31,078 bases of DNA from a virus. Taxonomy: Duplodnaviria; Heunggongvirae; Uroviricota; Caudoviricetes. Each line of letters begins with the position of its first letter. Position 1 is the stretch's first letter. The DNA lies in IMG/VR virus record IMGVR_UViG_2713896898_000008, positions 1-31,078 of that record; one strand, 5' to 3'. Both the position numbers and the translations under genes were made by a program. Of the stretch, positions 1-23,922 are shown in pieces. The notes below the pieces were generated by a model that was not told the origin of the DNA, searched no databases, and was given only the letters and a program-made list of their open reading frames with translations.

Positions 1-153
1 ATGAAAAACATTGCAGCTATCAAACGTAATAACCGCAAGATTCACGCTCGTAAGTTCCTGTCTACGCCAGAAGGAAAAGCCTGGCTAGAGCGTAAACAGC
101 GAGAGAACGAAGAAAGAAAACTCCTTAGTGAGTTGAAATGGCTTAAGGATTGA
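1..153 (+). CDS. hypothetical small basic protein (50 aa)
   Basis: ATG at 1, TGA at 151-153; below the ORF-track size cutoff; Lys/Arg-rich; no family recognised. Confidence 0.25.
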   Translation: MKNIAAIKRNNRKIHARKFLSTPEGKAWLERKQRENEERKLLSELKWLKD

Positions 154-1276: not shown

Positions 1277-1834
1277 TTTCCTTCTGTGTTGATTTGTGTG
1301 TAGTGATTATTGATCGTGTTGATTAGGTGTGTAAAGGACTTTTTTCACTACGAAATTCGAAGGTTTTTAGTGTGGTGATTTAGCCTGCTTTATCACTACA
1401 CGTCTTGCATGAGAATCATGTAGTTACATTTTGGTAAAATTAGCAAGCTATTAAATAGTGTGTTTATTTTGAAAAAATAATTTTTTGTTGCATTAAAGGA
1501 AACTTGTTCGACAAATAATAGATTGATTTTTAATCAACAATTTCTGATAGTGCTCTGTAAGCCGTATTACACAAGGCTTTGCGAAAGTGATGTAAAAGTG
1601 AAGAAAGCTAACATTGCACTTTTTAAGCTACTTTTCATTGGATTTTTACGTAGGAATTACACAGGGATTAATCATCAATTACATTGAATTTAAGCCTGTT
1701 TTAGATGTTTAATTTTGGTAGCAAGAAACACTTTTAGAAGATCATTGCACAGATGCTATGTGATGATTGGATGTAACGGTAGGTCACTGTGAGCTACCCC
1801 TATCAAGTCTGATACCCGATAAGTATAAATAACA

Positions 1835-1933
1835 CCTGGGAAATGAGTTCCGATCTATTTAGGAAATAACCGTGGAAGTGGTTTCCTACCTACCTAGGAA
1901 ATGAGTTCCTATCACCTAGGAAATGATTTCCGA
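1835..1933. repeat. three direct copies of a ~18-bp unit CCT(A/G)GGAAATGA(G/T)TTCC (1835-1853, 1893-1910, 1915-1933) plus a partial copy near 1860
   Basis: read directly; each unit contains inverted half-sites GGAA..TTCC; followed by a very AT-rich tract 1934-2003. Confidence 0.75.
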
Positions 1934-2003
1934 CAATACTATAATTAAACTACAATTAAACTATATAATATAATTCTTTTTTATCTTTATAAGAATAATT
2001 ATA

Positions 2004-2036
2004 GGGATACCCGTTAGGGAGTCTAACGGGTATCCC
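2004..2036. repeat. perfect 14-bp inverted repeat GGGATACCCGTTAG-(5 nt)-CTAACGGGTATCCC
   Basis: read directly; embedded in AT-rich DNA; protein-binding site or hairpin. Confidence 0.8.
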
Positions 2037-2945
2037 TTAATCTATTGGCATTCGCCAGAACCTTGCACAAGTTAGAGTGTTAGTCGTTAGACTGCTTGTC
2101 ATAACACATAGTTTTTGTTTGTTGATGTTAGTTAGTAGATCTATGTTCGCTAATGCCGCTCACAACGAATATGTAATCTACTATGTGCAAATAGCCTACG
2201 GCTTGCGTAAGGCTAAATAGTCTTGCGCTGTGCGCTTCAATAGTTCCATTGATGAGGCTTACGCCAATCTAACGATCATCAATCTATTTAAGAGAAAATC
2301 TATTGTGCAATACTCTGACGAGTGCAATAACCTTGTGTGCTACGCGTTAGCGATGTTAGCACATAGACACAGACAACAACCAACAACAAACAAAAAAGAA
2401 AGAATGGTTTTAGTAGTTGAAGGTTAAATAAGTTTCTACCGCTTAAATCAAGCCGTAGGCGAGCTAAACGTATATAAGGCAGGGAAACCTTAGCGGTAAT
2501 AGATTAGCTCATTATAGAGCTTCTGAGGAGCTTTACAGGTATTTTATAAGGTGTCTGAAATTAGAGTTTATCTATCATCTCCTTTTCATATACCTAACAA
2601 ATACAAAATAAGCCCCTTAAATAAACCTCTGGCGAGCTAAACTGTCATTACATAAGGGAATGTATTGTTTTTATCAAAACCTCGTTAGAACGCGTTTTAG
2701 AGAATAAGGAAGAATAGCATCACACAGAAGAGCACGAATTGCTAAGCAAAATCATAACATACTGAAAAATGATCAATATTTTATGGGCGGGGGTTGACAA
2801 AAGCCTTTAGTTATGGTAAAGTAATATTAGGGACAGGAAAACATTCCTATCCTCTAAATAATTAAACCAATGCACCGCACTTTGAAGCCCAAGAGGCTTG
2901 CAAGGTGTCTTTTTCTTTTAACCAAATAGAATAGGAGGTTAATTA

Positions 2946-3128
2946 GTGAAGTATTTCACTTCTCAAGATGTAGTTGAAGCCTGGAAACGTGGTGAGATCA
3001 ACCGCTTTAGGGTAAGAATGAATAGGAACACAGCGCGACGCTGTGGTTATCCAGAGCGTGAAAAATGTTTTGACGATGCACTAAAAATTATTGATGAACT
3101 GCGTAAGGCAGGAGCAGAGAAAGAATAA
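2946..3128 (+). CDS. hypothetical protein (60 aa)
   Basis: GTG start preceded by strong SD (ataggagg); first gene of a same-strand small-gene cluster. Confidence 0.45.
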   Translation: MKYFTSQDVVEAWKRGEINRFRVRMNRNTARRCGYPEREKCFDDALKIIDELRKAGAEKE

Positions 3129-3151
3129 TAACAGGAGAAGGAGAAAACCAA

Positions 3152-3340
3152 ATGAATATTAATTTTGATTCTGCAACTTATAACGCGTTGTTAAATCGTG
3201 CAAAGGCAGAAGGGAAATCAATTCCAAAACTTGTTAATGAATTACTAATTACAGTCCTTACAAAGGAGGAACTAAATGATCAAAAATATCAAAACAATTG
3301 CCGAAGCGAAAGCCAAATGTCTAAATCAGAAAGATGGTAA
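3152..3340 (+). CDS. putative ribbon-helix-helix (CopG/Arc-like) DNA-binding protein
   Basis: 62 aa; N-terminal beta-strand then helix pattern (NINFDSATYNALLNRAKAEGKSIPKLVNELL); SD ggagaaggag upstream; 3' end overlaps the next gene. Confidence 0.45.
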   Translation: MNINFDSATYNALLNRAKAEGKSIPKLVNELLITVLTKEELNDQKYQNNCRSESQMSKSERW

Positions 3341-3944
3341 ACAAAAATATGTAGTCGTTGAGCAGTGGTTGAAGATGTTTAAAAAGTGGTTCTCACCGTC
3401 AGGTAATGAATACACCGCTACACTGCCAGCCGTTGAAATCTATAGCTATATAGCTGGATTCAATGAACAAGGGCAAGAATGTTACGCCACTCAAAAAACA
3501 TTATCTAATATTGGAATGGTTAGTGATCGCCAGGTTCGCAATATTATAAATATGTTTGTTGATATGGGAGTTCTTTCTGTAGAGGCTCGGGACGGGCAAA
3601 CATCACTCTATAAAGCATTACCATTCACAGATGCACATATTACTCCCCCTGGAGAGTCATCACTACCTGATCCTTCTGAGAAAGAAGACGAATCTAATGA
3701 AATATTGAATGTTTCCGAAATCATCGTTGAAGAAGAAACACAAGAGCCAGAGTTCCCTGAGCGGCCCGAAATTTTTACTTGGCTTCTTTCCCTTGATAAG
3801 AAGAAACCACCGCACGAAGAAACAGAAGATTTTGTAAAACGAGCATTAGATTCAAAGAATATCTATCTTTGTGAAAATGATTTTGACTCTTTGATAATTG
3901 ATCTCAAAAGTGAGAGCACAATATATGATTCACTACCCTTCTAA
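3276..3944 (+). CDS. winged-helix DNA-binding protein with acidic C-terminal region (regulator or replication initiator-like)
   Basis: 222 aa; strong SD aaggagg 7 nt before ATG; HTH-like segment ATQKTLSNIGMVSDRQVRNIINMFVDMGVL resembling the N-terminal DNA-binding domains of phage/plasmid initiators. Confidence 0.5.
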   Translation: MIKNIKTIAEAKAKCLNQKDGKQKYVVVEQWLKMFKKWFSPSGNEYTATLPAVEIYSYIAGFNEQGQECYATQKTLSNIGMVSDRQVRNIINMFVDMGVLSVEARDGQTSLYKALPFTDAHITPPGESSLPDPSEKEDESNEILNVSEIIVEEETQEPEFPERPEIFTWLLSLDKKKPPHEETEDFVKRALDSKNIYLCENDFDSLIIDLKSESTIYDSLPF

Positions 3945-3953
3945 GGAGAATAA

Positions 3954-4223
3954 ATGACTTATAACATCACTATAGGAAACAAAACTATTGAAATAACTGA
4001 AAGCGGATACAACATTTTAAAAGCTATTTTGGACATAGAGTTTTCACCACCGACAGTGGTTAGCTTTTGTAGTTTAGGCGGCTACAGCGCACAACACGTA
4101 AATCATTGGTTAAATCATTTTACATCGTTCGGTGTGCTGGATTATGAAGGGATTAACAGCACTACATTTCGTCTTTTGAAATTAAACAAAGATTTTGAAT
4201 TGTTTCTCACAAACAATCAATAA
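3954..4223 (+). CDS. hypothetical protein (89 aa)
   Basis: ORF with SD aaggag upstream; same-strand operon context. Confidence 0.4.
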   Translation: MTYNITIGNKTIEITESGYNILKAILDIEFSPPTVVSFCSLGGYSAQHVNHWLNHFTSFGVLDYEGINSTTFRLLKLNKDFELFLTNNQ

Positions 4224-4320
4224 CAACAGATCGGGCAATACATATGGCAAATGCATTTATGGCGATATTCATCGTAACAATGGCGTCCAGTTTTTATAAT
4301 CCACATAAAAAGAGGGAAAA

Positions 4321-4704
4321 ATGGGAAGAAAGAAAAAGAACAACTTAAAACGTATTGAAAAAAACAGTAATTTCAATTCAAAAAGACAACGTCCACCGAC
4401 ACACACCAATAACGAAATTCCAGGGGAAGAGATAATCTTTATTCTTGAAACAGAATCCCCTGAATTAAGTGATGAAGAATTAGAAATAATCCAATCAATG
4501 CCAGGCGTTTACTTTCGCCCAAGAACAAGAAAACAAACTATCATTTCTGATGGCACTCTGAAACGTTGGCAGCTTTTAGGGTTTAGCTCCTATCATCATT
4601 TTTTGGGATTTAACGCTTTCAATAATTGTGTAGGTGGTGCATCGGAAGTCGATCTGATGGCTCATTTAGAAGATACATTAGCTTCTAACAAACGTTCTAA
4701 CTAA
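4321..4704 (+). CDS. hypothetical protein with lysine-rich N-terminus (127 aa)
   Basis: ORF preceded by aaagaggg SD-like sequence; AT-rich codon usage consistent with neighbours. Confidence 0.4.
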   Translation: MGRKKKNNLKRIEKNSNFNSKRQRPPTHTNNEIPGEEIIFILETESPELSDEELEIIQSMPGVYFRPRTRKQTIISDGTLKRWQLLGFSSYHHFLGFNAFNNCVGGASEVDLMAHLEDTLASNKRSN

Positions 4705-4719
4705 TAAAATGATGGGTGT

Positions 4720-4965
4720 ATGTATAAGCGCCCAATGAAAATATTCAAAAAAGGAAAAATAATGATTGGCTATATTCAAGAAACACAATTATTTCAGATG
4801 ATCCTGTCTGATGCAAAAAACTATGCAGAGTTAATTCGGCTGGCAAAAGAAACAGAAGACTACGAAGCATTAGAGCGTTACCGTGATGAAGTGCTGACGC
4901 TCAAGACACCTTTTAACATCGTATTGAATATGATTAATGATGCATTACAAGGAGAATACGCATAA
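4720..4965 (+). CDS. hypothetical protein (81 aa; alternative start at internal ATG 4762)
   Basis: ORF in same-strand cluster; stop overlaps next start (ATAATGG). Confidence 0.4.
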   Translation: MYKRPMKIFKKGKIMIGYIQETQLFQMILSDAKNYAELIRLAKETEDYEALERYRDEVLTLKTPFNIVLNMINDALQGEYA

Positions 4966-5264
4966 TGGAAGAAGATATTAGCAATGCAATGGAACAACTT
5001 TTAGATCTGACTATCTCACTACAAACAAGAATAAATCAAGCCTATTCAGATTTATGCGATTACACGCTCTCTCAATGCGTTATTAGCTTAATGAAGGTGA
5101 ATGTAAGCCTTGACGATTTTATCTCTCTGGTGAGCGTATCAGAGGACGATGCAAAACAGTGTAATCAAATCATCACAGACATCGCCACCACGTTAAAGGT
5201 TGCAAGTGAAGAGATTCAGCAATTAGTAGATGATTTAGCAAAAAGTGCTATTTTCTCTAAATGA
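4965..5264 (+). CDS. hypothetical acidic protein (99 aa)
   Basis: ORF translationally coupled to upstream gene. Confidence 0.4.
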   Translation: MEEDISNAMEQLLDLTISLQTRINQAYSDLCDYTLSQCVISLMKVNVSLDDFISLVSVSEDDAKQCNQIITDIATTLKVASEEIQQLVDDLAKSAIFSK

Positions 5265-6248
5265 TAATGAAAATTATTTGCATTTATAATGATTTTGTTA
5301 TATAATAATTTTAGGGGTAGATAAAAAGATTTTAGTTGGTGTTAATCCTTCTACTGTCATAAATCCCTGCATATGGAAGGTGATAGCCTCAAAGGTTGAG
5401 TGGCATTAACCTCTAACAAATATTACCTTCCATCTCTCAAGAAGTTTTAGAATAATCATAACTCCCTCTTTGATTGTTGATTGTTTCTACGTTGTGTTGA
5501 TGAATGTTGTTAGGCATTGTGCTTAATTTTGATAAAAGCGGGTAGGTGTTATCTCCTTGCCCTTCCCGCTCTTATTTTTCATCTATGCTTATCCTAAAGC
5601 TCCTTATTTTGTCAGAAAACATTAAAGAGCCTTACACTGATAGTTATATTTTATAACTATTTACTAACATCATTAAACTATTATTTAATGACAGAAGTTA
5701 GTAACAGAATAATCTATTAAGTTGTTGTCAAAAACAATCATCTGCATAGCGTTAGCCGCAAGCAGAGAGAGTTTAGCTAAGAATGGTGCAATAAACTTTG
5801 GAAATATTGATAGCAAAACGGGTTTTATAGAATGCGGATCTATAAGCTTTGGTTGTAAAAACGATTTTCTGAAACGGTAGATTACTGTTGGTGTAGTTAA
5901 TCATTATTAAAAATTTAATCTGTGAGTAGATTGGAATAGTGATTCCTTAAAATCTGACTGGTGCATCCACACCATGAAAGATAGCGGTTGGCCACCGCGC
6001 CCCGAATAGATATTCCTGATTGATTCCGCATGTTTTCCTAAGAGCATGTTTTCAGGAGTATCTATTCACCCTTTAAGCATATCATCAAGTATATTTAAAA
6101 AGTGTATTTGCTGATATGTTTAATCCTCTTATAGTTTAACTTATCAATTATGTAATTGCCCGCACGTTAAAGCCCCTTTGCTGGTCAGAATTAACCTCTT
6201 ACGGCATTGGGGCTTTTTATTTGTCTGGCACTAACAGGAACATTATTT

Positions 6249-6446
6249 ATGAAACAAGAAATGATTATCAGCAAAGACGGGGAAACGATGATTGTTAGTG
6301 ATGAAAACCTCATTAAGGTTGCCGCACTGTTGGGAGTTACTCCCGAAAGTCTTCGTTCTACCACTGCTCAATTATTTAAATCGGCTGATGCGGTTAGTCT
6401 TGCTGATGCCCTTAAATCTAAAATTAAACAACTGAAAGGAAAATAA
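6249..6446 (+). CDS. hypothetical small protein (ORF-track 6207..6446; internal ATG 6249 preferred)
   Basis: first gene of a tight five-gene plus-strand operon. Confidence 0.35.
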   Translation: MKQEMIISKDGETMIVSDENLIKVAALLGVTPESLRSTTAQLFKSADAVSLADALKSKIKQLKGK

Positions 6447-6450
6447 TCTT

Positions 6451-6834
6451 ATGGCTAACCCATATGGAAAATTAAAAGCAGTGAATGCGGATAACTCCCG
6501 TTCACGCTGTAAGGTAGTAGCTTACGCTGCTGATCCAGTGCTGCAAGATCGCCTCGTCAAACTGGCTTCACCTCTCACTGACGATCTTATTGTCGGGGCT
6601 TTGCTGAAAGCCGATGGCACCAAAGCAACAACCGCATCTGATATTGCTCACGTAGTAGTTGAACCGGCTTATGAAGGACAGGAAAGCGTAGTGGTTGCAC
6701 ATCCTACTTTCGTTATTCTGGCTGAAGATGGGATTGAATTTAACAGCATGGAAAAGGCAAGTGTTATTGCAAAACTGCAATCTCTCGGCTTTGTAATTGC
6801 TGGTTATGAAGAACTTGCGATCCCTACGACTTAA
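6451..6834 (+). CDS. hypothetical protein (127 aa), possibly virion-associated
   Basis: 4-bp spacing from upstream gene; SD aaaggaaaa; sits immediately before a capsid-like 343-aa gene. Confidence 0.45.
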   Translation: MANPYGKLKAVNADNSRSRCKVVAYAADPVLQDRLVKLASPLTDDLIVGALLKADGTKATTASDIAHVVVEPAYEGQESVVVAHPTFVILAEDGIEFNSMEKASVIAKLQSLGFVIAGYEELAIPTT

Positions 6835-6848
6835 CAAGGAAAATAATA

Positions 6849-7880
6849 ATGAATGATTTATCAACATATTTTGGCGTTAATACTGCGGTAGTAACTCCAT
6901 TTGCTTATGAGAATGCACTTAATACCCTGATTACTAATCTCGATCTGTTCGATGTGCAATATCATACAGAAAACAGCATTCTTCTTACCGACCTGATTGA
7001 TCAGTTTGTGCAGGTAGCTGGGGAAACCTCGCCTTACGCTCAAAGCGACTGGAACGCCTCTAAACGTCAGGAATGGTCAAACAAACTTTTCCAGATGAAA
7101 CACGTCGGCAGTATTAACGCTGTTACTTCTCGTGACCTGGAACAATACAGCCGCCAATATCCAAACCGTTCTGATGCTATGCTGGTAGCGGTTAATGATT
7201 TCTCTGAGGCTCATTACCGTTCACACGCAAACCGTGTTGAAGTGGATCTGATTACCGCGCTGCTGGGCCTGAAAGTTGAATCTGAATATGCCGGACAAGG
7301 TGATCTCGACTTCCTCGACGGTCAGGCTAAAACCACGGTACCCGCTATCGACTTTGCATCGACTACTGTTAACCCGTTCCTTGCTATTCGTAAAGCGGTG
7401 CGCTTACAGAGTGAAAAGCTGGGGTCTGGTCTTGCTGCAAAGCGAACTGGTGTAATTATCTTTGCTGCTGGCACTGCTGCTGATGGTTTGTCATCTAACC
7501 CGCTGATCAGTGACATGGTGAAATATGCAGGCGATGCGAGTGCTACGGCCCTGTTTACCCGTATGGTTGATTCTAACCCAGCCTATGACTCTTTCCAGAT
7601 TGGTGGGATCACTGTTATTGATGTGTCAATGTTTCCTGAGATTGTTGCTCACATCGGAGAGAACGGTTTCGCAATTGTTCCGGTAATGGATAAAGCGGCA
7701 CAGTGTTACCAGCTTCATAGCGGCGTTGGTGTGCGTCATGCTGAGTTAGGTCAAGATGCCGTGTTGCATCACCAATATCTAATCAAGGATGAATTCCAAT
7801 TCCCATCTGTGGTTACTGAGACATCTTATCTGCCAGTAAACAACATTCCGCAAGCTATCATCTTCGGATCTGCTGCGTAA
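6849..7880 (+). CDS. hypothetical protein (343 aa), composition reminiscent of a major capsid/coat protein
   Basis: SD aaggaaaa upstream; Ala/Gly/Ser/Thr/Val-rich with no TM segments or enzymatic motifs; functional assignment is inference only. Confidence 0.5.
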   Translation: MNDLSTYFGVNTAVVTPFAYENALNTLITNLDLFDVQYHTENSILLTDLIDQFVQVAGETSPYAQSDWNASKRQEWSNKLFQMKHVGSINAVTSRDLEQYSRQYPNRSDAMLVAVNDFSEAHYRSHANRVEVDLITALLGLKVESEYAGQGDLDFLDGQAKTTVPAIDFASTTVNPFLAIRKAVRLQSEKLGSGLAAKRTGVIIFAAGTAADGLSSNPLISDMVKYAGDASATALFTRMVDSNPAYDSFQIGGITVIDVSMFPEIVAHIGENGFAIVPVMDKAAQCYQLHSGVGVRHAELGQDAVLHHQYLIKDEFQFPSVVTETSYLPVNNIPQAIIFGSAA

Positions 7881-8031
7881 TAAAGCGTTAATAGACGATT
7901 CCCCATCGGGGCAATAAGGGTAAAGGGATTAACTAACCTGTAGGCGCAAATACAGTAACGAATCTCTTTGCCCTTTTTGTTTTTCTACTGTCTACAAACC
8001 CAAATAAAAATATATATGTGAGAGAAAACCA

Positions 8032-8229
8032 ATGAATACAGAAAACCCACAATCCTTTATTCTTAAGGCTGTAAAAGAACTGGCAGCTATTAGCGAGGAA
8101 TCAGTTATAAACACATCGGCGCTTTGCCGCCTTTTAGAAATTGATGCAAATAATGTGCGCCAGCGTGTCTTTCAGACTGGGTGCAGCACTTTCGAAGCAA
8201 TTCAATACTATTGCTCTAAAAAACAATAA
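8032..8229 (+). CDS. hypothetical small protein (65 aa)
   Basis: ORF within operon. Confidence 0.35.
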   Translation: MNTENPQSFILKAVKELAAISEESVINTSALCRLLEIDANNVRQRVFQTGCSTFEAIQYYCSKKQ

Positions 8230-8263
8230 TAAACAACAATCATAATACAGGGAAACAATTAGC

Positions 8264-10105
8264 ATGTTAGAACTTAACGTCAGCCGCTTATCAAACGTTG
8301 TCACCTTCCAGGTTGATCGACCATCATTAGAGAAAGCAAAAGCAGAAGTAGAAAAACTTCGTAAACAAATGGCGGCGGTGAAAGATATAGAATTGCGTGT
8401 TAAGACACATAAACAATCAACTTCTAAAGCAAAAAAAGACGTAGACGATATTGCTAAAAAGCAAGCACAGGCAGATAAAGCCAATGCTAAAGCACAATTA
8501 GCCGCTCAACGTGTAGTTGCAAGAGAACAAAAAGCCCTGGCAGCACGCAAAGAGAAGGCAGACTTAAAACTGTTAGACGTTGGATCAAGCATTAGTGCAT
8601 TGCACCGCCTTTCTGTAGCGGAACAATATAAAGCTATTGCACAGGCTAGAGAAATTGCCCTCCAATATGAAAGAGGAGCTATTAGTCTGGCACGTATGAA
8701 TAGCCAAATGAAACGCCTACAACAGCAACAACGTAAGATTAATGGCAATCGTAACGCTCACGCTAAAGCCTATGCACCTGTTAAGGGTAGCGGGAGTATT
8801 GGCGGCGGTGCTGCGGCTGTTATGCTGGGTGGCTTAGGCGCTGGCGCTACGTATATGGCTATGAGCAAAGCCTCTGAATTTGTTACTAACAGCTTTGCGA
8901 ATGCTGAAACGCTGGGTGAATTGTATAGCCGTGCGAAGCTGGGCGGTGTAGACGTTAACCAGATGAACAATATTGAGCAATGGGCCTACAAAAACGGCGT
9001 TGATTCAATGATGGGGGATCAAGGTAAACGTAAGTATCTCGATCAGATGAAAGATGTGCGTGAGCGTGCAACCAAAAGCTATGATGAGGCTGAATATGTA
9101 GTCGATAAAAAAACAGGCAAAGGTGAATGGAAGGGCGGCGATAGCGGCATCAATACTTTAATGAATGAAGGATTCTTAACTAAAAAGGATCTAAAAGACT
9201 TTGCTGATAATCCGGCTGGTCTGGTTAGTAAAGCAGTTCAGGGAATGGTGAAGAAAGGCTATTCAGATGCACAAATCGGTAGTCGTCTGGAAGATCTGGC
9301 TGATGATTTGATGCTCACCTCTAAATACTGGACACGCTCCGCTAAAGAAGTGGAACAATCAGCACGAGAACAACGAGAATCAGGGCGCTGGGTAACACAG
9401 GCACAACAGGAAAGCGTTATTAAATTCCGTGAACTGAATAATGCACTTAGTGGGCTTTCTGACTCACAAGGGATCGCCTTTGTTGATGGCTTTATGAAAT
9501 CTCTTGATCCGAAAGTGATTGAAGAGTTTAAAAAGAGCATGGTTGCAATGCTGCCAATGTTTACCAAATTAGGCGAGGCTATCGGCGGATTGGTTAACGC
9601 CGTAATGAAAACAATCAACTGGCTGATGAAAAACGACGAGAAGACGGAAGCTATTCAGAAGAATTTAGGGGATGCACCGCCACTATCTAACGAAGGAATG
9701 AAGCAGAATCTTTCTAATCTCACTCCTGATCAATATAAAGGCGCTGGCACCGGAACAACTAAGCCAGATAACAGCAATTCCCTGGTTAACACTATTAAAA
9801 GCTGGTTTATGCCAGAAGAAACGGTAGGTGGGGCGCAGGCTGTAAATCAATACAGTCTCGAAGGACAAAACATTGCAAATCTGAAACAGAGTGCAGCACA
9901 ACAAGCTTTCAAGGCTCCTTCTTACACCTTTGCACCTGTTATTAACTTCAATCCAGAATTACAAGTAAATGCAGAAGTGCCGCTAACTATCGAATCAGAC
10001 ACCGGACGATTGAGCGAATTTATCGACTTCAAATCAAAGGCATCCTCCGCTGAGTTTAGCAAGCTATTAACGCTGGGTGTTATGTCAGGCGGGTCAACCT
10101 ATTAA
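8264..10105 (+). CDS. hypothetical 613-aa protein with long N-terminal coiled coil and Gly-rich hydrophobic segment (tape-measure / ejection / TolA-like architecture)
   Basis: residues ~20-180 are Lys/Ala/Glu/Gln-rich heptad-like; GSGSIGGGAAAVMLGGLGAGATYMAMS hydrophobic stretch; function inferred from architecture only. Confidence 0.5.
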   Translation: MLELNVSRLSNVVTFQVDRPSLEKAKAEVEKLRKQMAAVKDIELRVKTHKQSTSKAKKDVDDIAKKQAQADKANAKAQLAAQRVVAREQKALAARKEKADLKLLDVGSSISALHRLSVAEQYKAIAQAREIALQYERGAISLARMNSQMKRLQQQQRKINGNRNAHAKAYAPVKGSGSIGGGAAAVMLGGLGAGATYMAMSKASEFVTNSFANAETLGELYSRAKLGGVDVNQMNNIEQWAYKNGVDSMMGDQGKRKYLDQMKDVRERATKSYDEAEYVVDKKTGKGEWKGGDSGINTLMNEGFLTKKDLKDFADNPAGLVSKAVQGMVKKGYSDAQIGSRLEDLADDLMLTSKYWTRSAKEVEQSAREQRESGRWVTQAQQESVIKFRELNNALSGLSDSQGIAFVDGFMKSLDPKVIEEFKKSMVAMLPMFTKLGEAIGGLVNAVMKTINWLMKNDEKTEAIQKNLGDAPPLSNEGMKQNLSNLTPDQYKGAGTGTTKPDNSNSLVNTIKSWFMPEETVGGAQAVNQYSLEGQNIANLKQSAAQQAFKAPSYTFAPVINFNPELQVNAEVPLTIESDTGRLSEFIDFKSKASSAEFSKLLTLGVMSGGSTY

Positions 10106-10152
10106 TCATCACTGTGGGGCTGTTTAGCCCCCTTAAATAAGGATTACAAATT

Positions 10153-10830
10153 ATGGCAATGGGTCCGTTAACCATTGGTCGCCCGACTGAGGCGAAAATC
10201 AACAGCACAAGCAACGATAGCAACGGTAGAACAACCAAAGGGGGTAACGGCTTTGCGATCATTACCTCTAATCTCGGCAGTGGTGCAAATGCTGCTTACA
10301 ATGACTACCAGGCATTATCATTTGATAGCGTGGAATCGACGAAAGTTAGCAGAAATGCGGACGTTACAAGCTATGCCGTCGAATCAGGATCAGAAGTTAG
10401 TGATCATGTTCAAATACGGAATAACAAGTTCACATTACAAGGGCGTATCTCTGAAACCGTATTGAAGCTCAATCCTGATATGATTAAGAATGCTGGAATT
10501 AACGGCAATCGACGTATGCTTATGCTTGAATACCTAAATCAGTTGATGGACAGTCGCCAACCTTTCCTACTTGTCACTGAGTTAAAAAATTATGACAACG
10601 TTGTGTTAGTTGGCATGTCTTACGAAGAAGAAGCAAGCGAAAGCCTATTGTTTACTCTTGATTTTGAGCAAATCCGTCTTGTCTCTAAAGCAACTACAAG
10701 CGCAATTGCGGTAAAAACAGCACCAAATAAATCTGTAGGAGGCCAGGTTAAAATGCAGGTAAATACAACAGAACAGAAAAATCAAAAAAGCCCAGGGCAA
10801 GACGTTGTAACGCCAGTATTTAAACAATAG
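10153..10830 (+). CDS. hypothetical protein (225 aa)
   Basis: last gene of operon; followed by hairpin 10872-10903. Confidence 0.45.
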   Translation: MAMGPLTIGRPTEAKINSTSNDSNGRTTKGGNGFAIITSNLGSGANAAYNDYQALSFDSVESTKVSRNADVTSYAVESGSEVSDHVQIRNNKFTLQGRISETVLKLNPDMIKNAGINGNRRMLMLEYLNQLMDSRQPFLLVTELKNYDNVVLVGMSYEEEASESLLFTLDFEQIRLVSKATTSAIAVKTAPNKSVGGQVKMQVNTTEQKNQKSPGQDVVTPVFKQ

Positions 10831-10871
10831 CCTTAAACGCCTATGAAACGCTCTGTAACGAGATAATCATA

Positions 10872-10903
10872 AAAGAGGCATCAGTCTATATTGAAGCCTC
10901 TTT
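10872..10903. terminator. bidirectional stem-loop between convergent genes
   Basis: AAAGAGGC...GCCTCTTT stem; T-rich tract on both strands (TTTATTA on plus, TTTTATGATTAT on minus). Confidence 0.5.
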
Positions 10904-10910
10904 ATTACGT

Positions 10911-12188
10911 CTATAGCGTTGTTTTACGCCTTAAATTTGATTTTTTATTGATTGATAAGCCTTTCTCTATTTCAGGGTAGCGTAAAAGCTCAATATATTT
11001 TTTAAGCTCTATTGGAGAAGCTGCATTTTTGCTATATGTGCGGAATGTTTCTGTATTGCCGCGTGTATGGCCCAGGAGAAGGGCGATCCTGTCTTCTGGA
11101 ATTTGATTTCGATCAAGAAGCTGTGCTACTCCGTGTCTCAGAGAATGAAACACTTTCCTTTCTGTTCCCTTTTCCCCTAAAGCCTTTCGTTTAGCTCTTG
11201 TAAATCGTTGTGTATGCCACGTAGAGCGTTTACCGTCAGCACGTTCTGTAATGCTGGCGTGATAGAACAAAAAGCCATTGTGAGGCTTTTCACGCAGCGA
11301 CAACACCAACGGAGTGATAAGGTTATGCACAGGCACAACACGTGCCGCAGCTTTCGTCTTTCCCTGTGTGATTTCAAAACACAGCACACCTTCGATCTCT
11401 TTCACATCGTCTATTGTGAGACTTGCTATCTCATTGATCCGCATACCTGTATATAAACCGATAAGACACAAAGCCGTCATTTCTTTGTTTTCTGCTGAAT
11501 TACCGGAAAATACTTGCAACACCTGCAATAGCTCTTTGTTAGAAAATGCCTCGTAGCTCTCTCTACTTTGTGCCACATCAAGCCTATGCCCTCGCCAGGG
11601 GGAGAGCGCCCTTTCTGGCGCATCGTGGTAACGTGATGAAGCTAATTCCCATAGCTGGGCCATTGGACTGATATAATTTGCAATTGATTGTTGTGAAAGA
11701 GTTTTTTGCATGTGTTCAATCCAGCCTGTAACAGTGGTGCGGCTTACATCTTGCAATGCAATATCAGGCTTTTTACGGTAGGAGAGAAACATCTCTACCG
11801 CTTTTCTTGCCTTAGCTAAAGTGGCTGGCTTCTTCTTCGTGCTGTTAATTGTCAGGTAGATTTCAAGAATTTTAAGCAATGACGGACACGAAGACGCTGT
11901 ATCTTGCACTCTGGTAGCTGTTTTGGCGTATTTAGCCTTACTGCGTAACAGTTCCAGCGTGTTTTCTATTGTGCTGTTTACAGGGGCAACACTCTCCCGT
12001 AAGCAATGGTATTCATCTGCAATCTGATCACGCTTTCTACGTGCAACACGAAGATTACTTGTGTGTAGACTTCTGACAAACGTCCTTTTTCCTTCAAAAA
12101 AGGGCTGCATATACACAGGCAGCGTGATCCTTAAATAGTAGTTACCGTAAGAATCACAGATTAAGTATTGGTTAGGCTTGTATCTCAT
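10911..12188 (-). CDS. tyrosine recombinase / phage-type integrase (second integrase; ORF-track 10911..12275 begins at TTG)
   Basis: C-terminal catalytic signature HSLRHGVAQ ... LLGHT ... TYSK (R-H-R-Y family); preferred start ATG 12188 has SD GGAG 6 nt upstream. Confidence 0.8.
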   Translation of the reverse strand: MRYKPNQYLICDSYGNYYLRITLPVYMQPFFEGKRTFVRSLHTSNLRVARRKRDQIADEYHCLRESVAPVNSTIENTLELLRSKAKYAKTATRVQDTASSCPSLLKILEIYLTINSTKKKPATLAKARKAVEMFLSYRKKPDIALQDVSRTTVTGWIEHMQKTLSQQSIANYISPMAQLWELASSRYHDAPERALSPWRGHRLDVAQSRESYEAFSNKELLQVLQVFSGNSAENKEMTALCLIGLYTGMRINEIASLTIDDVKEIEGVLCFEITQGKTKAAARVVPVHNLITPLVLSLREKPHNGFLFYHASITERADGKRSTWHTQRFTRAKRKALGEKGTERKVFHSLRHGVAQLLDRNQIPEDRIALLLGHTRGNTETFRTYSKNAASPIELKKYIELLRYPEIEKGLSINKKSNLRRKTTL

Positions 12189-12363
12189 AAAATCTCCGGC
12201 TAAAGTGTCGGAGCGTTTGTAATGTGAAAATTGATTGTGACGCATAGAAAATGATGATTTTTCTATAAGATTCAATCAATTAGTAATGGTCGTAGGTGAT
12301 GGCATTAACACGAGATTAATCGAGTGTTTTACTCCTATTATCGGCACCATTTAAATCAATAAG

Positions 12364-13524
12364 TTATCTCACATTTAAGTAAACCACGTTTTCCTCTTGT
12401 GCCGTATTTGTGCCATTGCGACTTATAATCGCATCGATTTTGCTCGCGTGCTCAGTGAGATGCCCGGCTGAAAGGTGGGCGTATCTTTGAACCATTTCGA
12501 GAGTTTCCCATCCTCCCATCTCTTTAAGTGCAAGAAGAGAGACACCGGACTGAACCAGCCAGCTTGCCCAGGTATGCCTCAGGTCATGGAAGCGGAAGTT
12601 GCTAATGCCTGCCCGCTTTAACGCTCCCTTCCATGCCTTGTTGCTGTCGGTTCTCATCTTCCTTACCGCTGCTGTTTTTGTTCCGTCGTTTCGGTAGGCA
12701 GGTTTGGTGTGGACAAATACCCATCTCTTATGGAGCCCCTGCTGTTTTCTTAATATCTGGCATGCGGTTTCGTTAAGAGGAACTCCGATCGCATTGCCGG
12801 CTTTTGTTTCATCAGGGGGCATCCATGCCATTTTCTTATCCAGATCGACCTGTGACCACTCAAGGTCTGTAACGTTGGAGCGGCGAAGACCTGTAGTGAT
12901 TGCGAACATGACCACAGGGAAGAAATGAGGAGCAATTTCTGCAAACAGGCGCTTCGATTCCTCCTCTGTAAGCCATCTGATTCGTCCATTCTTAACGCGT
13001 GGTGTTGATATTTTTGGCGCCCTGTCAAGCCATCCCCATTCAACAGCCATATTGAGAATAGCGCGAAGTATTGCCAGATGCCGCATCTTCGTTCCTTTGC
13101 TTGCCAGCTTTGGTTTATACTCCGGCACTGGCTTGCCAAGCCGCAAACACCTGTCCCGGCTCATCTCCCAGTTCAGGCGATGGCGGCGGTTTTCCATCCC
13201 GTCTACCGCCTCCATTATTTTTTCTGTTGTTATGTCAGAGAGAATGGTTTCTCTGAAGTGCAACATCCAGAACGATATAATGCTCTTGTCATCATCAATG
13301 GACTTCTTATCCGATTTCTCACGCAGCCACCGTATGCAGGCTTCCTTGAATAGCTTTTTCGGTGATTCCCCGAGATTTTTTACTCTCCACGCTTCTGCTT
13401 TCAGACGATCGTGAAGTTCTTGCGCTTGCCTTTTGTCCGATGTTTCAAGAGAGCGTCTAACTCTTGATCCATCTGGCGCGACGAAATCGCAGTGCCACGT
13501 GCCACCGCGTAGTTTGATTGACAT
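12364..13524 (-). CDS. int: lambdoid phage integrase (tyrosine recombinase)
   Basis: 386 aa; catalytic motifs TGLRRSN, FHDLRHTWAS, VQRYAHL; strong SD AGGAGG; immediately downstream of an excisionase and Red operon as in lambda, but sequence is not lambda Int. Confidence 0.9.
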   Translation of the reverse strand: MSIKLRGGTWHCDFVAPDGSRVRRSLETSDKRQAQELHDRLKAEAWRVKNLGESPKKLFKEACIRWLREKSDKKSIDDDKSIISFWMLHFRETILSDITTEKIMEAVDGMENRRHRLNWEMSRDRCLRLGKPVPEYKPKLASKGTKMRHLAILRAILNMAVEWGWLDRAPKISTPRVKNGRIRWLTEEESKRLFAEIAPHFFPVVMFAITTGLRRSNVTDLEWSQVDLDKKMAWMPPDETKAGNAIGVPLNETACQILRKQQGLHKRWVFVHTKPAYRNDGTKTAAVRKMRTDSNKAWKGALKRAGISNFRFHDLRHTWASWLVQSGVSLLALKEMGGWETLEMVQRYAHLSAGHLTEHASKIDAIISRNGTNTAQEENVVYLNVR

Positions 13525-16928: not shown

Positions 16929-17225
16929 TTATACCTCTGAATCAATATCAACCTGGTGGTGAGCAATGGTTTCAACCATGTACCGGATGTGTTCTGCCAT
17001 GCGCTCCTGAAACTCAACATCGTCATCAAACGCACGGGTAATGGCTTTTTTGCTGGCCCCGTGGCGTTGCAAATGATCGATGCATAGCGATTCAAACAGG
17101 TGCTGGGGCAGGCCTTTTTCCATGTCGTCTGCCAGTTCTGCCTCTTTCTCTTCACGGGCGATCTGCTGGTAGTGACGCGCCCAGCTCTGAGCCTCAAGAC
17201 GATCCTGAATGTAATAAGCGTTCAT
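16929..17225 (-). CDS. gam: Gam, RecBCD inhibitor (short GamS form)
   Basis: 98 aa [21 protein letters not shown]...[10 protein letters not shown] matches lambda Gam C-terminal 98 residues. Confidence 0.9.
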
Positions 17226-17300
17226 GGCTGAACTCCTGAAAATGGCTGTGAAAATAGCGCCCGCGAAATGCCAGGCTGATTAGGAAAACAGGAAAGGGGA

Positions 17301-17507
17301 TTAGTGATTCAGGCCGTTGCCGCGTCCGTCGAGAAAAACTTCCACGAGCAAATCACGGGTATAAGTGCGCTCGATGCCGCGATGCAGATAAAGCCGTCCG
17401 CGTAAATTAGCTGATGCAGTCCAGTTACCATCTTTGTGTTTGACCAGCATTCCTGGCATGACCGCACCTCGATTAACGGTCTGCGTTCCGTAATGTTGAT
17501 GAACCAT
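17301..17507 (-). CDS. hypothetical early protein in the kil/cIII position (68 aa)
   Basis: good SD (CAGGAG) 6 nt upstream of ATG; first convincing ORF downstream of the pL-like promoter; identity not recognised. Confidence 0.5.
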   Translation of the reverse strand: MVHQHYGTQTVNRGAVMPGMLVKHKDGNWTASANLRGRLYLHRGIERTYTRDLLVEVFLDGRGNGLNH

Positions 17508-17774
17508 AAAAACTCCTGCCCGTAAGCTGGGCTGCTGAACAAATAAGGGGTTGCGCAGTATCTGGCGGTGGATGGCCGCCGGTTGTCATAACTAAGCCGC
17601 CTCGTTGAAGCAACTGAGGTATGAAGTGTTGATTTGATTTCAGCTGGTCACACCGACGTTCACGCGTCCGCTTCACCCCTCGCACTCCCCGGAGCCTGCT
17701 GAAATTCAAGCTGCGGATCTAAGCGGTCATCGCAACGGTGAATCAGGTGGTTGCCGTATCGTTGTGTTGTTGCG

Positions 17775-17803
17775 ATATGGTGATAATAGCTATTGCTATT
17801 GGT
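17775..17803 (-). promoter_or_regulatory. pL-like early-left promoter with overlapping operator repeats
   Basis: minus strand -35 TTGATA (17803..17798), 17-nt spacer, -10 TATTAT (17780..17775); operator-like TTGCTATTG motifs (17781-17794, 17811-17819) also present in the cI-cro intergenic region. Confidence 0.6.
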
Positions 17804-17950
17804 GATATCAATACTTGTTGCTATTGGTTGATGTGTTTTGATATTAAATATTTGATAGCAAAAAGAATTAATTTTGTGACTTGCATCGCATAGCGATAAC
17901 TGAAGCGAGGTTGTGGTGGTTTTTTGAACGGTGTGTGATGAGGGGAGGGG

Positions 17951-17980
17951 ACAAAAGAAAACCCGGCACGGTGGCCGGGT
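17951..17980 (-). terminator. rho-independent terminator ending the cI-proximal operon
   Basis: minus strand ACCCGGC-CACCGT-GCCGGGT followed by TTTTCTTTTGT; immediately after stop of the 310-aa gene. Confidence 0.75.
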
Positions 17981-17987
17981 AGCATCA

Positions 17988-18920
17988 CTATTCGATTTTT
18001 TTAACCATGTAGTTACGTCGTGATGTTCCTAATCTTTCATTGTGAATCTCAGAAACGCTTACTACGAGCGATATTCGTTCACCAACTTTATATTTACTTT
18101 GAATTTCTCCTAACATATCAATCGGATAAGAAGCCTTTATTTTTCCAAGCTCGCTTGCAATCTCCAATTTTCCGTACATGGATAAAATAGCAAGTTCGCC
18201 TGATATATGCTCATCCGGTAGCTGAATGACCTTCGTTAAAGCTAAGCGAGCATTCAGTTTTTTTATATCTTCTGAAGAAATTGACACTTGTCTGGTACCA
18301 TCACTTAAAGGTCCAATCCAAGTAAGATCAAAGTTAAGACTATATTTTTCGCACTCATTTATGATGTTTTTTAGGTTAGCTGTTGATTGCGAACCAATTT
18401 CGGCAATTTTAGCCGTGAATGTTTCTTCATCAATGGATGAGAGTAGTGCAAAAATCTCCTTAACAGCATGACTGGATACTGTTTCGATGAGCTCGCAAGA
18501 ACCAGTAGAAAAAGTAACACCTAACTTCGTCGAACCTGGACGCAAGTCTGCCAATCTCATGTCTAATGATTTTTTAACATCAATCGGCACACGACTAGAA
18601 TCTTTCCCAGATCCAAGTCGGTAAACTGCTTTCTGTACAAGGGATGCGAGATTACCTGAAATTACAGATAGAATATCTAACGGAATAGACCCGAAATCGA
18701 CCAAAACACCTTTTAATCTCAACTCCATGAAATCACGTAAAGGATGTTGGTTATCGATTGCACGTTGTCTCTCTCGGAGATCGCTCAGATGGGAGTCAAG
18801 TGATCTAAATATAATGTCATCAGCAAATGATCTCCCCTTATTTTGAGCAAGCAGATCCACATCGCGTTGAATGAACGCAATTCGCTCCTTGAGGGAGTTG
18901 AATGTTTTTTCTTCGCTCAT
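17988..18920 (-). CDS. hypothetical 310-aa protein, partner of nucleotidyltransferase-like gene (rex-position module)
   Basis: start ATG overlaps stop of upstream gene (ATGA); no recognised motifs; located between cI and pL where lambda carries rexA/rexB. Confidence 0.6.
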   Translation of the reverse strand: MSEEKTFNSLKERIAFIQRDVDLLAQNKGRSFADDIIFRSLDSHLSDLRERQRAIDNQHPLRDFMELRLKGVLVDFGSIPLDILSVISGNLASLVQKAVYRLGSGKDSSRVPIDVKKSLDMRLADLRPGSTKLGVTFSTGSCELIETVSSHAVKEIFALLSSIDEETFTAKIAEIGSQSTANLKNIINECEKYSLNFDLTWIGPLSDGTRQVSISSEDIKKLNARLALTKVIQLPDEHISGELAILSMYGKLEIASELGKIKASYPIDMLGEIQSKYKVGERISLVVSVSEIHNERLGTSRRNYMVKKIE

Positions 18921-19390
18921 AACATTACCCTCACGAGGCCTTTAGGATTCTCCTTCCGATCAAAACCAAACCACCCTCTCCAGTAACTTCGCCTTTCACT
19001 ATAATCGATTTCTGGATGATTTTCAGGCAGCAAAAGAACGTCAATGCTGTAGTTTTCTTTAATAAAATCTCTATTTAACAATGAGCTAACCAATGGCATC
19101 AGCGTGTTTGGCAAAGAGTTTAGGGCCAAATAATCGACGACCACGAGTATATCTATGTCATCAGGTTCAGGTTTCTCTGTAGTGAATGAACCATCGATCC
19201 ACACTTCAGAGAAACATAGACACTGCTGATTAACAAGTTTAAATTGCTCAATAAGCTGTATAAAATTACAGTATAGCATACTTCTTCTAACGGATTTTGG
19301 GAAGGTGTCGACACAAAGAGACTTGATGCCATCACTATCCATATCATGAAATCCTGCTGTAAGAAGAGGTGGGAAGCTAGGCTTTTCCAT
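18917..19390 (-). CDS. nucleotidyltransferase-fold protein (Pol-beta/MNT-like), 157 aa
   Basis: motif WIDGSFTTEKPEPDDIDILVVVD fits the G-S-x(9-13)-D-x-D nucleotidyltransferase signature; SD AGGA 7 nt upstream; directly downstream of cI. Confidence 0.55.
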   Translation of the reverse strand: MEKPSFPPLLTAGFHDMDSDGIKSLCVDTFPKSVRRSMLYCNFIQLIEQFKLVNQQCLCFSEVWIDGSFTTEKPEPDDIDILVVVDYLALNSLPNTLMPLVSSLLNRDFIKENYSIDVLLLPENHPEIDYSERRSYWRGWFGFDRKENPKGLVRVML

Positions 19391-19471
19391 CCTAAGTCCT
19401 TGTTTATGCCATATAGTGTTCTATTTAATATTCTTGAAAAGAGTGTGCCTTAAAAAGCTACAGGCTAATTA

Positions 19472-20164
19472 TTAACCATGCTTCCTGTACGTCTGCGGCA
19501 TGCTCCCAATAACCTTACCGAAGATGAACACCCGGTTCATCTCGTCTTTCTCGATCGGGTCCCACGGTGAGTAGCTCTTGTTATCAGAGATAACCAGTAG
19601 CTTATCTTTCATCATTTGCAGGCGCTTTACATGGGCTGTGTCGTCGTACAGAAACGCATAGATACCATCACCGTCGAAAGATTTAACCGTGATATCAACG
19701 AACAGAAGATCACCTGGTTCGATCGTTCCTGACATGCTGTCACCGCGTACGTTAATGATGCGGATATTTTCTGCCTTCCTACCATCGAACATGTGACGAG
19801 CATCGTCAAACGAGTACTCAACCGAGCGTAGAACTTCTACAAACTCACGGTTGATGACACCCGGCCCGGCACTGACTTCTATATCAAGAACGTCAATCTT
19901 GAAGTATTTGGAATGGTTGACAGCAGGCTTCCCTGATTGTTGACCGTCATTTCTCATCGGGCCTATGCCTGATGAGAGCCACTCTGTTCGAACACCCAAT
20001 GCATTAGCTATTTCAACAATTTTTGTTGAGCCGCGCGCGTTGCCGCTTGTCAGTCTCCAGATTGTGGGTTGAGCTACGCCAGACGCCTTTGCAAGAGCGC
20101 CTTGAGACATTCCAGATTGTTCCATCGCTAGGTTTAAGCGATCAGCAAGAGTTTCTTTTTTCAT
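19472..20164 (-). CDS. cI: CI-like prophage repressor (HTH plus S24 LexA-like autopeptidase domain)
   Basis: N-terminal XRE-type HTH (LADRLNLAMEQSGMSQGALAKASGVAQPTIWRL); C-terminal GDSM...K peptidase S24 motif; ORF-track 19472..20200 trimmed to ATG 20164, which lies just downstream of a TTGACC/TATAAA promoter (leaderless, as for lambda pRM). Confidence 0.85.
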   Translation of the reverse strand: MKKETLADRLNLAMEQSGMSQGALAKASGVAQPTIWRLTSGNARGSTKIVEIANALGVRTEWLSSGIGPMRNDGQQSGKPAVNHSKYFKIDVLDIEVSAGPGVINREFVEVLRSVEYSFDDARHMFDGRKAENIRIINVRGDSMSGTIEPGDLLFVDITVKSFDGDGIYAFLYDDTAHVKRLQMMKDKLLVISDNKSYSPWDPIEKDEMNRVFIFGKVIGSMPQTYRKHG

Positions 20165-20274
20165 AAGTTTTAATTTATACGCTTGCGTATTGATGGTCAA
20201 AACACGTTTTGCTATTGCTTAGGTTAATACGTATTGCTATTATTCCTTCATTGCAATACCAATAGGAATTGATA
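20165..20274. promoter_or_regulatory. divergent pRM/pR-like promoters and operator repeats (immunity switch)
   Basis: minus strand -35 TTGACC (20200..20195) and -10 TATAAA (20179..20174); plus strand -35 TTGCTT (20215-20220), 17-nt spacer, -10 TATTAT (20238-20243); repeated TTGCTATTG-type motifs shared with the pL region. Confidence 0.6.
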
Positions 20275-20502
20275 ATGACAAATCAAACCATTCAACTCGC
20301 AATCAGTATTACAGGTAGTCAAAAACGACTGGCAGATCTATGCGGTGTAGCCCAACCCACAGTTTGGCGTTGGCTACACGGTGGCGGAATTGATGCCCGC
20401 TATGTAATGAAAATTGTCTCAGCCACTGGTGGAAAGATTAAACCAGCAGATATTCGTCCCGACCTCGCACCATTGTTTAACGCGAGTAATTCTGCCGCCT
20501 AA
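20275..20502 (+). CDS. cro: Cro-like HTH repressor
   Basis: 75 aa from ATG 20275 (track ORF starts at TTG 20269); HTH SQKRLADLCGVAQPTVWRW; divergent from cI. Confidence 0.75.
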   Translation: MTNQTIQLAISITGSQKRLADLCGVAQPTVWRWLHGGGIDARYVMKIVSATGGKIKPADIRPDLAPLFNASNSAA

Positions 20503-20526
20503 ACTGCGGCGTTAACTGATAAGGCA

Positions 20527-21072
20527 ATGACTATGCAACCACTTACATACCAACAGACTAGCGGGTTTAGCCCGACTGCGGTGATAAATCGTTCTCAAAC
20601 AAAACAGGCGCCAGGCCACGAAAAAATCCGTGATGCCGTTCGCGCCTGGTCGGCTGCAGATAATCAGGATGTTGTTGCCGCACTCATTGTGAATGAGTAT
20701 CGGGAGCAGGGCGGCGGCACCATCGATTTCCCTGATGATGTCAGCCGTGCACGCCAGAAGTTGTTCCGCTTCCTCGATAACAAATTCGATTCTGAAAAAT
20801 ACCGAAATAACGTGCGTGAACTGACCCCGGCAATTCTGGCGGTACTACCGCTGGAATATCGCGGCCACCTGGTTGAGCAGGATAGCTTCATGGCTCGGCT
20901 GGCTGAAATGGAAAAGGAACTCAGTGAGGCAAAGCAGGCGGTCATTCTCAACGCACCACGCCACCAGAAACTGAAGGAAATGAGTGAAGGTATTGTGTCG
21001 ATGTTTCGTGTGGACCCGGATCTGGCTGGCCCATTAATGGCGATGGTTGCCACCATGCTGGGGGCAATATGA
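20527..21072 (+). CDS. CII-like / YdaT-like regulatory protein (181 aa)
   Basis: occupies the cII position between cro and O; family assignment from recollection of ~170-aa CII-like prophage proteins, not verified. Confidence 0.4.
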   Translation: MTMQPLTYQQTSGFSPTAVINRSQTKQAPGHEKIRDAVRAWSAADNQDVVAALIVNEYREQGGGTIDFPDDVSRARQKLFRFLDNKFDSEKYRNNVRELTPAILAVLPLEYRGHLVEQDSFMARLAEMEKELSEAKQAVILNAPRHQKLKEMSEGIVSMFRVDPDLAGPLMAMVATMLGAI

Positions 21073-23560: not shown

Positions 23561-23922
23561 ATTTAACACCTAAAAACTGTTTAAAGTCAGTATGATAGAG
23601 CGATTTCTGGAACCTGTTGAGTGATGGTGATCACATTATGAGAATGAATGACTGCGGTTGACCGCCACCATTCACTGGGGCTAATTCTTTGTGTTGCCGC
23701 AAAATCGGCACACGGGATTGGCGTCCCGGAACACTACTCAACGCATACCGCGTTAAGCAGTTTTTTATGCGCTAAGCGCGGCTACGCCCAAATTATGGTG
23801 GGCTGTGTGAGGGCTTCTTCGGAAGCGCCGGGTTTGTGTAGCCGGTTACGCCAACCTTGCACAGTTCACTACCTGTCGATTGGCGTCGTTGGTGGTGATT
23901 GTTAACCTGATGAGGTGATACT

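Follow-up and report, generated by a model that had tools for sequence, protein, structure and literature searches.

The slot beside the cI repressor gene is where temperate phages put genes that are active in the lysogen, and we asked what two genes filling this slot in an Escherichia coli lambdoid prophage encode and what they may do there. The prophage lies in IMG/VR record IMGVR_UViG_2713896898_000008, analysed over positions 1 to 31,078 (the whole stretch, hereafter the window), and the region in question is 98.9% identical to the isolated phage PhiR30_1, which also carries the two genes. Gene A (18917..19390, minus strand, 157 aa) and gene B (17988..18920, minus strand, 310 aa) both start with ATG and share the four bases ATGA, in which the stop codon of A meets the start codon of B (18917..18920, minus strand; junction GTA ATG TTA TGA GCG); read from the sequence, this overlap is translational coupling. 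A first-pass annotation, made from the letters alone, had described the two reading frames and their overlap, as borne out here, and had proposed that they form a Rex-replacing, prophage-encoded defence or toxin-antitoxin-like pair. Both are real genes and not chance open reading frames, since both have hundreds of homologues. That they make up a conserved, co-translated module of a nucleotidyltransferase (NTase) and its partner, carried as prophage cargo, is in our view nearly certain. We further propose, tentatively and with less than even confidence, that the module is a conflict system resembling type VII toxin-antitoxin pairs, expressed in the lysogen, in which A would nucleotidylylate B.

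We asked whether A has the features of an active enzyme. The G-S-x9-D-x-D motif on which the first-pass annotation had based its NTase call is present as W-I-D-G67-S68-x9-D78-I-D80 and is 97-100% conserved in the 80 homologues returned by a scan for A relatives, one genome being taken per species. Residues R36, W64, G67, S68, T71, K73, P76, D78 and D80 are conserved in 100% of them, D66, K150 and G151 in 97%, W137 in 92% and D117 in 88%. All the hallmarks of a Pol-beta-superfamily NTase were found, namely the hG[GS] motif, the DxD pair, the third acidic residue (D117) and the alpha/beta NTase fold, which upholds the call. Given this conservation, A is under selection as an active enzyme. Its structural neighbours are minimal NTases, including HI0073, the MNT antitoxins of HEPN-MNT pairs (scores of 5.5 and 5.0) and the ANT adenylyltransferases for aminoglycosides and lincosamides (5.8-5.1), with CD-NTases and poly(A)/CCA enzymes at slightly lower scores; the neighbours are distant, at 13-21% identity. 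With a pI of 4.8 the protein is acidic, and it lacks membrane segments. Judged from its sequence, A is a soluble minimal NTase with a complete active site. In a profile search, a highly conserved C-terminal motif, RSYWRGWFGFDR (residues ~130-146, window 18917-19000), also matched ribosome modulation factor weakly (PDB 2jrm, E 0.33), probably by chance.

The family, which the first-pass annotation could not name, is already present in several catalogues. A matches Pfam DUF6932 (PF22014) over residues 8-155 with 92.5 bits against a cut-off of 27, besides sub-threshold matches to Pfam Pol-beta NTase families, and it matches the PADLOC model PDC-M63A (PDLC04744) with an E value of 7.4e-43. B matches PDC-M63B (PDLC04749, E 4e-42, plus five further M63B models). 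In PHROGs, A belongs to phrog_9194 and B to phrog_6603, both families of unknown function. The pair is thus a member of PDC-M63/DUF6932, its defining hidden Markov models being matched by genes that are adjacent and co-oriented. PDC entries are PADLOC's unpublished "phage defence candidates" (PMC11811056), and the candidate defence status suggested by the first-pass annotation had been given to the pair independently by the curators of this resource. A search of NCBIfam with both proteins gave nothing above noise, and PDB sequence searches with single sequences and profiles of A and B gave nothing significant. The literature search on PDC-M63, DUF6932, PF22014 and the RefSeq protein accessions returned only one study, on E. 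coli NILS69, which is considered below. PDC-M63 is a computational candidate only, with no described mechanism or structure.

We also asked how closely A and B are tied to each other outside this prophage. The 80 A loci are spread over Gamma-, Beta-, Alpha- and Deltaproteobacteria, Bacteroidota, Nitrospirota, Verrucomicrobiota, Bacillota, Acidobacteriota, Parcubacteria and further groups. A B homologue was found directly downstream of A, on the same strand, at 54 of the 80 loci with a narrow enterobacterial profile and at 78 of the 80 after one profile iteration. The two genes share a four-base NTGA overlap at 47 of these 78 loci, and most of the others either abut or overlap by 7-25 nt. When B was searched for exhaustively with a profile, 275 clusters (50% identity) were returned at E<=1e-3; among the 150 matches listed, lengths are about 300-330 aa and no domain fusions occur, the few short entries being probably partial. 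All of 107 diverse B homologues (107/107) match all six PDC-M63B models. The pair is in this sense obligate, and such coupling would argue for a stoichiometric complex of the two proteins.

The first-pass annotation had recognised no motif in B, but the protein is not featureless, as a C-terminal OB fold and a single invariant serine were found. The AlphaFold2 (AF2) model of B is usable (predicted local distance difference test score, pLDDT, 80.5) and predicts an N-terminal helical hairpin or coiled coil of two long helices (about residues 10-56), an alpha/beta domain with low-confidence loops and no structural match (about 59-228), and a well-predicted C-terminal beta-barrel with an OB fold (about 229-309). 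Among the 107 B homologues, which are 17-53% identical to the query, Ser130 is the sole invariant column and Gly129 is kept in 106; both belong to the motif [DN]-L-R-[LF]-x-G-[LIV]-x-x-G-S-[TS]-[RK]-[LI]-x-[ILV]-[TS]-[GA]. Model confidence is lowest around this motif (pLDDT 56-65, residues 121-150), as would be expected of a mobile loop. The protein is soluble and near-neutral, with a maximum 19-residue hydropathy of 1.54, and nucleic-acid binding by its predicted OB domain is plausible, not assured. The first ~90 positions of PDC-M32A, a PADLOC candidate, gave a remote match in 35 of the 107 homologues (best E 7e-8) that spans B residues 62-148 (window 18477-18737), including the Ser130 loop. 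No PDC-M32A-like proteins were found among the compared loci, and the literature on PDC-M32 was uninformative. A Pfam scan of the 107 homologues at E<=0.05 gave no recurrent family.

Other identities for B were considered. The best PDB match of its N-terminus is a keratin coiled coil, which was dismissed as compositional; HEPN was discarded, as neither the motif nor the fold matched; and a Walker A was rejected because G125-x3-G129-S-T-R departs from the pattern GxxxxGK[ST]. That S130 is the serine of a recombinase or hydrolase is conceivable, but no motif in its favour (such as YxRVST or GxSxG) is present in the protein.

How could an NTase and such a partner work together? In type VII toxin-antitoxin systems of the MntA-HepT kind, the first gene encodes a minimal NTase and overlaps the gene of the partner, which the NTase AMPylates and thereby keeps inactive, and in MNT-HEPN pairs the NTase gene comes first, which is the usual antitoxin position. 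We take MntA-HepT as the closest mechanistic precedent because A is likewise encoded first and MNT antitoxins are among its structural neighbours; the likeness extends to the overlap with a larger partner and to the GS...DxD...D triad conserved in A. The pair differs in that B fails the HEPN RNase test (Rx4-6H motif), so it falls outside that family. The sequences do contain what nucleotidylylation of the MNT-HEPN type would use, a conserved active site in A and a candidate acceptor serine in B. We propose that A and B would be transcribed with cI in the lysogen and form a complex, in which A would use an NTP to nucleotidylylate B on Ser130, following the logic of MntA-HepT, and this modification would keep B inactive. 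A superinfecting phage, or loss of the module, would disturb the balance between A and B, and unmodified B would be the active species. By means of its OB fold and of oligomerisation through the coiled coil, B would then target either a replication/recombination protein or single-stranded nucleic acid and arrest the infected cell or the phage, by abortive infection or direct interference. Taken by itself, modification of B by A at Ser130 is a rather doubtful element of this scheme. The most general form of the proposal is unlikely to be correct as a whole: that PDC-M63 is a new class of nucleotidylylation-controlled conflict systems in which the invariant serine of a non-HEPN, OB-fold partner receives a nucleotide from a minimal NTase, or serves it as the primer of a short nucleic-acid chain, and which lambdoid prophages deploy from the cI transcript as a Rex replacement.

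The same features could also be read with the roles of the two proteins reversed. A would then be a toxic NTase that adds tails to the 3' ends of tRNA, RNA or DNA, blocks these ends, or modifies a protein of the host or the phage, much like the NTase toxins MenT and AbiEii, and B would be an OB-fold sensor or regulator that recognises phage single-stranded DNA (ssDNA), a single-stranded-DNA-binding protein (SSB) or a recombinase and releases or activates A. NTase toxins are an established class, the catalytic site of A is fully conserved, and B has no catalytic motif beyond one serine and carries an OB fold of the type seen in SSB, RPA and PriB. Many defence systems, AbpAB among them, sense phage SSB or ssDNA. 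Against this reading, A is small (157 aa) and without the additional substrate-binding domain found in known NTase toxins, the structures nearest to it are those of minimal NTases, of MNT antitoxins and of adenylyltransferases for small molecules, and its gene holds the first position, usually that of the antitoxin in MNT-HEPN pairs. Moreover, A gave no DUF1814/AbiEii match in Pfam or PADLOC at E<=1, which separates it from AbiE/MenAT systems. We consider such a reversal improbable. The pair also differs from CBASS, which is defined by a CD-NTase of ~300 aa and an effector activated by cyclic nucleotides.

Taken together, the NTase, the OB fold and the one invariant hydroxyl residue, which sits on a flexible loop, would also suit a system built on a nucleic-acid product. 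A would make a short homopolymer, possibly primed on Ser130 of B and held by the OB fold of B, and phage nucleases or SSBs that remove this ligand or compete for it would switch the complex on. The logic is that of Hailong, in which an oligodeoxyadenylate made by the NTase guards the effector; Hailong is likewise a two-gene NTase-based module, and a single-stranded nucleic-acid ligand is plausible through the OB fold of B. Protein-primed homopolymer synthesis has an anti-phage precedent in defence reverse transcriptases (PMC12483538). Hailong, however, pairs the NTase HalB with the membrane effector HalA, whereas neither A nor B has a transmembrane-like segment (maxima of the 19-residue Kyte-Doolittle hydropathy, 1.26 for A and 1.54 for B), and no HalB-like or other Hailong-like structure appeared among the top structural matches for A (PDB to April 2026). 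B has no membrane or other effector domain and its OB domain is not basic, and minimal NTases of the size of A are not known to work as processive polymerases. A nucleic-acid product seems to us very improbable.

We return to the proposed nucleotidylylation-controlled pair, for which the position in the prophage is relevant. The cI gene (19472..20200, minus strand) encodes HTH_3 and Peptidase_S24 domains and is annotated cI in PhiR30_1; its start is probably the ATG at 20164, giving a protein of 230 aa. Directly downstream come an 81-nt spacer (19391..19471, minus strand), which carries the ribosome-binding site of A (AAGGACTTAGG ATG), then A and B, and then a Rho-independent terminator (17951..17980, minus strand) that closes the cI-A-B unit. 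The stem of this hairpin, 17980..17961, lies 8 nt past the stop codon of B, has 7 pairs of which 6 are GC, and is followed by the tail TTTCTTTTGT. Beyond it lies a pL-like promoter, TTGATA-17-TATTAT (17811..17783, minus strand; promoter match 10/12), in an OL-like operator block (17777..17825). This block is one copy of a 49-nt operator-bearing repeat with TTGCTATTG motifs; the other, at 73% identity, is an OR-like block in the cI/cro interval (20193..20241, repeat D1), next to a cro-like open reading frame from the ORF list (20269..20502, plus strand). The repeat pair brackets A and B, and both genes are therefore inside the immunity region, between cI and OL/pL, at the position that rexAB holds in lambda. 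The first-pass annotation had placed the pair there, downstream of cI and ahead of a terminator and a pL-like promoter, and the sequence agrees with it on each of these points.

As for transcription, no terminator-like site was found on the minus strand between cI and A, and when a promoter conserved with the cassette was sought in the spacer of the enterobacterial copies, the ribosome-binding site alone was conserved. Because there is neither a terminator between cI and A nor a conserved promoter of their own, the simplest expression model would be read-through from the cI promoters. Positions 17000-20600 were also searched for RNA elements and gave no Rfam match at E<=1. The likeness to lambda rexA and rexB thus covers the position downstream of cI, the terminator before OL/pL and a probable expression logic; it does not extend to sequence or architecture. 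RexB of lambda is a polytopic membrane protein, whereas B is soluble, and A is an NTase and not a DNA-binding protein of the RexA/RdgC type. In agreement with the earlier statement that neither protein resembles RexA or RexB, family searches gave only DUF6932/PDC-M63, and B has no membrane segment.

The first-pass annotation had also called this locus a hotspot for exclusion and defence genes; it is indeed a place where cargo is swapped, and sibling phages carry other genes there. The phages 4A7 and PhiR68_2 have the C-terminal half of cI and the pL side in common with the window; in blastn comparisons, homology with them breaks off at 17979/17980 and is regained from 19470/19476. This delimits the mobile unit as a cassette of A, B and the upstream spacer (17981..19469, minus strand), which reaches from just inside the terminator, itself just beyond the edge, to the stop codon of cI. 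The GC content of the A-B module is 36-42% against 51-53% in the flanks, as is typical of acquired cargo. In 4A7 the slot (1582-2998 of locus L009) holds a 353-aa protein and an ASCH-domain protein, which match PADLOC PDC-M11A/B (E 3e-133 and 7e-52), and in PhiR68_2 (1579-3034 of locus L010) an overlapping two-gene cassette of 341 aa and 149 aa. The latter pair gave no Pfam or PADLOC match at E<=0.001 and may be an uncatalogued cargo pair. With its sharp boundaries and alternative cargo, the slot resembles those of BstA and other repressor-adjacent prophage defence genes and the P2/P4 hotspots, where defence-type cargo sits in a fixed, swappable place (10.1101/2020.07.13.199331 and PMC9122126). 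The proteins themselves are unrelated, and A-B differs in being a candidate defence system only.

The pair recurs behind unrelated repressors. In mEpX1 a diverged pair follows an unrelated repressor in the order cI, A, B, nutL/N (B 55% identical), and in Erwinia phage vB_EhrS_59 a diverged A-B comes directly after an unrelated cI (B 72% identical). Among 5426 complete E. coli genomes the cassette is present at >=99% identity in 98, chromosomal in every case. It is linked to at least two cI alleles, which have the same C-terminal (S24) halves and different N-terminal DNA-binding halves, with 81% identity overall (locus L011 against window 19472-20164); two alleles with one cassette therefore imply recombination within cI or exchange of the cassette between immunity types. 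In E. coli OkiPb01716 (4940-6200 of locus L013) an IS3 element sits exactly at the A/B junction, so that A loses its C-terminal 8 residues, among them the near-invariant K150-G151, to replacement by the insertion, whereas B is left intact.

Does the pair take part in conflict, or does it serve the prophage in another way? As a non-defence function, the module could tune induction or the lysogeny-lysis switch, as is reported for lambda RexA/RexB, or it could do no more than stabilise, as an addiction module, the prophage and the other mobile elements that carry it. Its place inside the immunity region, with expression that would be linked to the repressor, suits such a function, and PMC12315714 cites a role of RexAB in the transition to lytic growth. 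Several kinds of mobile element carry the pair: in Edwardsiella it lies within a DUF927-primase island, in Pseudoalteromonas it adjoins a Tn3/mer element, and it occurs on three plasmid records. The NILS69 study, which reported no defence phenotype in the native host, counts on this side too. Yet the pair is equally conserved at many loci that have neither a repressor nor a prophage in their vicinity, among them loci beside restriction-modification (R-M) genes, Cas3 and PD-T7-4, and in a sibling phage a different defence candidate occupies the slot. The OkiPb01716 strain tolerates a truncated A next to an intact B, which would speak against a simple, strongly expressed toxin, though the IS3 insertion probably also removes the coupled translation signal of B and silences it; for this reason the variant does not discriminate between models. 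A function outside defence is in our estimate improbable, much as the reversed roles are.

The 150 genes that flank the 80 loci belong most often to HTH_3 (9), Peptidase_S24 (5) and IS1 transposase (4). Defence genes were represented by type I R-M in 2-3 loci, one Cas3, one PD-T7-4 and one PDC-S02, and many of the 150 are ordinary housekeeping genes. An S24-type repressor gene lies directly upstream and co-oriented in the loci of Pseudomonas (three species), Halopseudomonas and Trinickia, and in Bermanella the pair adjoins an imuB/dnaE2-like cassette. Such surroundings are consistent with small mobile cargo that is to some extent associated with defence. We favour a role of A-B in conflict with phages or mobile elements, by somewhat more than an even chance, because the same slot holds PDC-M11 in 4A7, the pairs follow unrelated repressors, mobile and defence genes occur among the neighbours and the GC content is low.

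Several observations weigh against the more specific proposal of a lysogen-expressed module in which A modifies B. Deletion of PDC-M63AB from its native prophage in E. coli NILS69 revealed no protection against 10 virulent dsDNA phages. A search of B for a recognisable effector domain (nuclease, HEPN, transmembrane, TIR, protease) found none, and its OB domain is not notably basic, the family median pI being 6.9. A known defence gene is the immediate neighbour in a minority of the 80 loci, these counts being descriptive. Moreover, co-transcription of cI, A and B is deduced from the lack of a terminator after cI and of a conserved promoter of the pair's own, and contact between A and B, modification of B and toxicity of either protein are proposals. 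The idea of a Rex-replacing candidate defence or toxin-antitoxin-like pair is reasonable and agrees with an independent catalogue, with the qualifications that the family had already been catalogued, that this instance is common in E. coli and that the sole experiment was negative.

The listing of PDC-M63 as a candidate was already known. New here are the OB fold and single invariant serine of B, the intact NTase site of A, the near-universal coupling of the two genes, the exact boundaries of the cassette and the recurrence of the pair behind unrelated repressors. A family that spans Parcubacteria to Enterobacterales thereby gains concrete handles, D78/D80/D117 in A and S130 and the OB fold in B, and a sharp-edged slot with interchangeable two-gene cargo is a natural place to seek new conflict systems. 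If serine nucleotidylylation proved true, NTases would control toxins other than HEPN RNases, and type VII toxin-antitoxin chemistry would reach a new effector fold and a serine acceptor. If the module turned out to be inert against phages, it would be a useful caution on lists of candidates drawn up by guilt by association.

Other features of the window were observed beside this locus. Between the pL-like promoter and a kil-like gene (17301-17507), no N-like open reading frame was found on the minus strand (17510-17790), and none is annotated in PhiR30_1; the left leader of ~270 nt is no more stably folded than shuffled sequence (z -0.76), and Rfam gave no match to it. Positions 1-12275 form a distinct element, which encodes a tyrosine integrase of its own (10911-12275) as well as a "phage baseplate protein" and abuts the integrase of the lambdoid prophage (12364-13524). 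Bases 1-12000, the range compared, are 100% identical in E. coli AH21I008, where the genes annotated past the matching stretch are not those of a lambdoid prophage. Finally, the Rfam C4 antisense RNA (RF01695) matches window 23791-23876 (plus strand) over its full length, with 70 bits against a gathering threshold of 45, which suggests an antisense immunity element of the P1/P7 type in the late-early region of the prophage.

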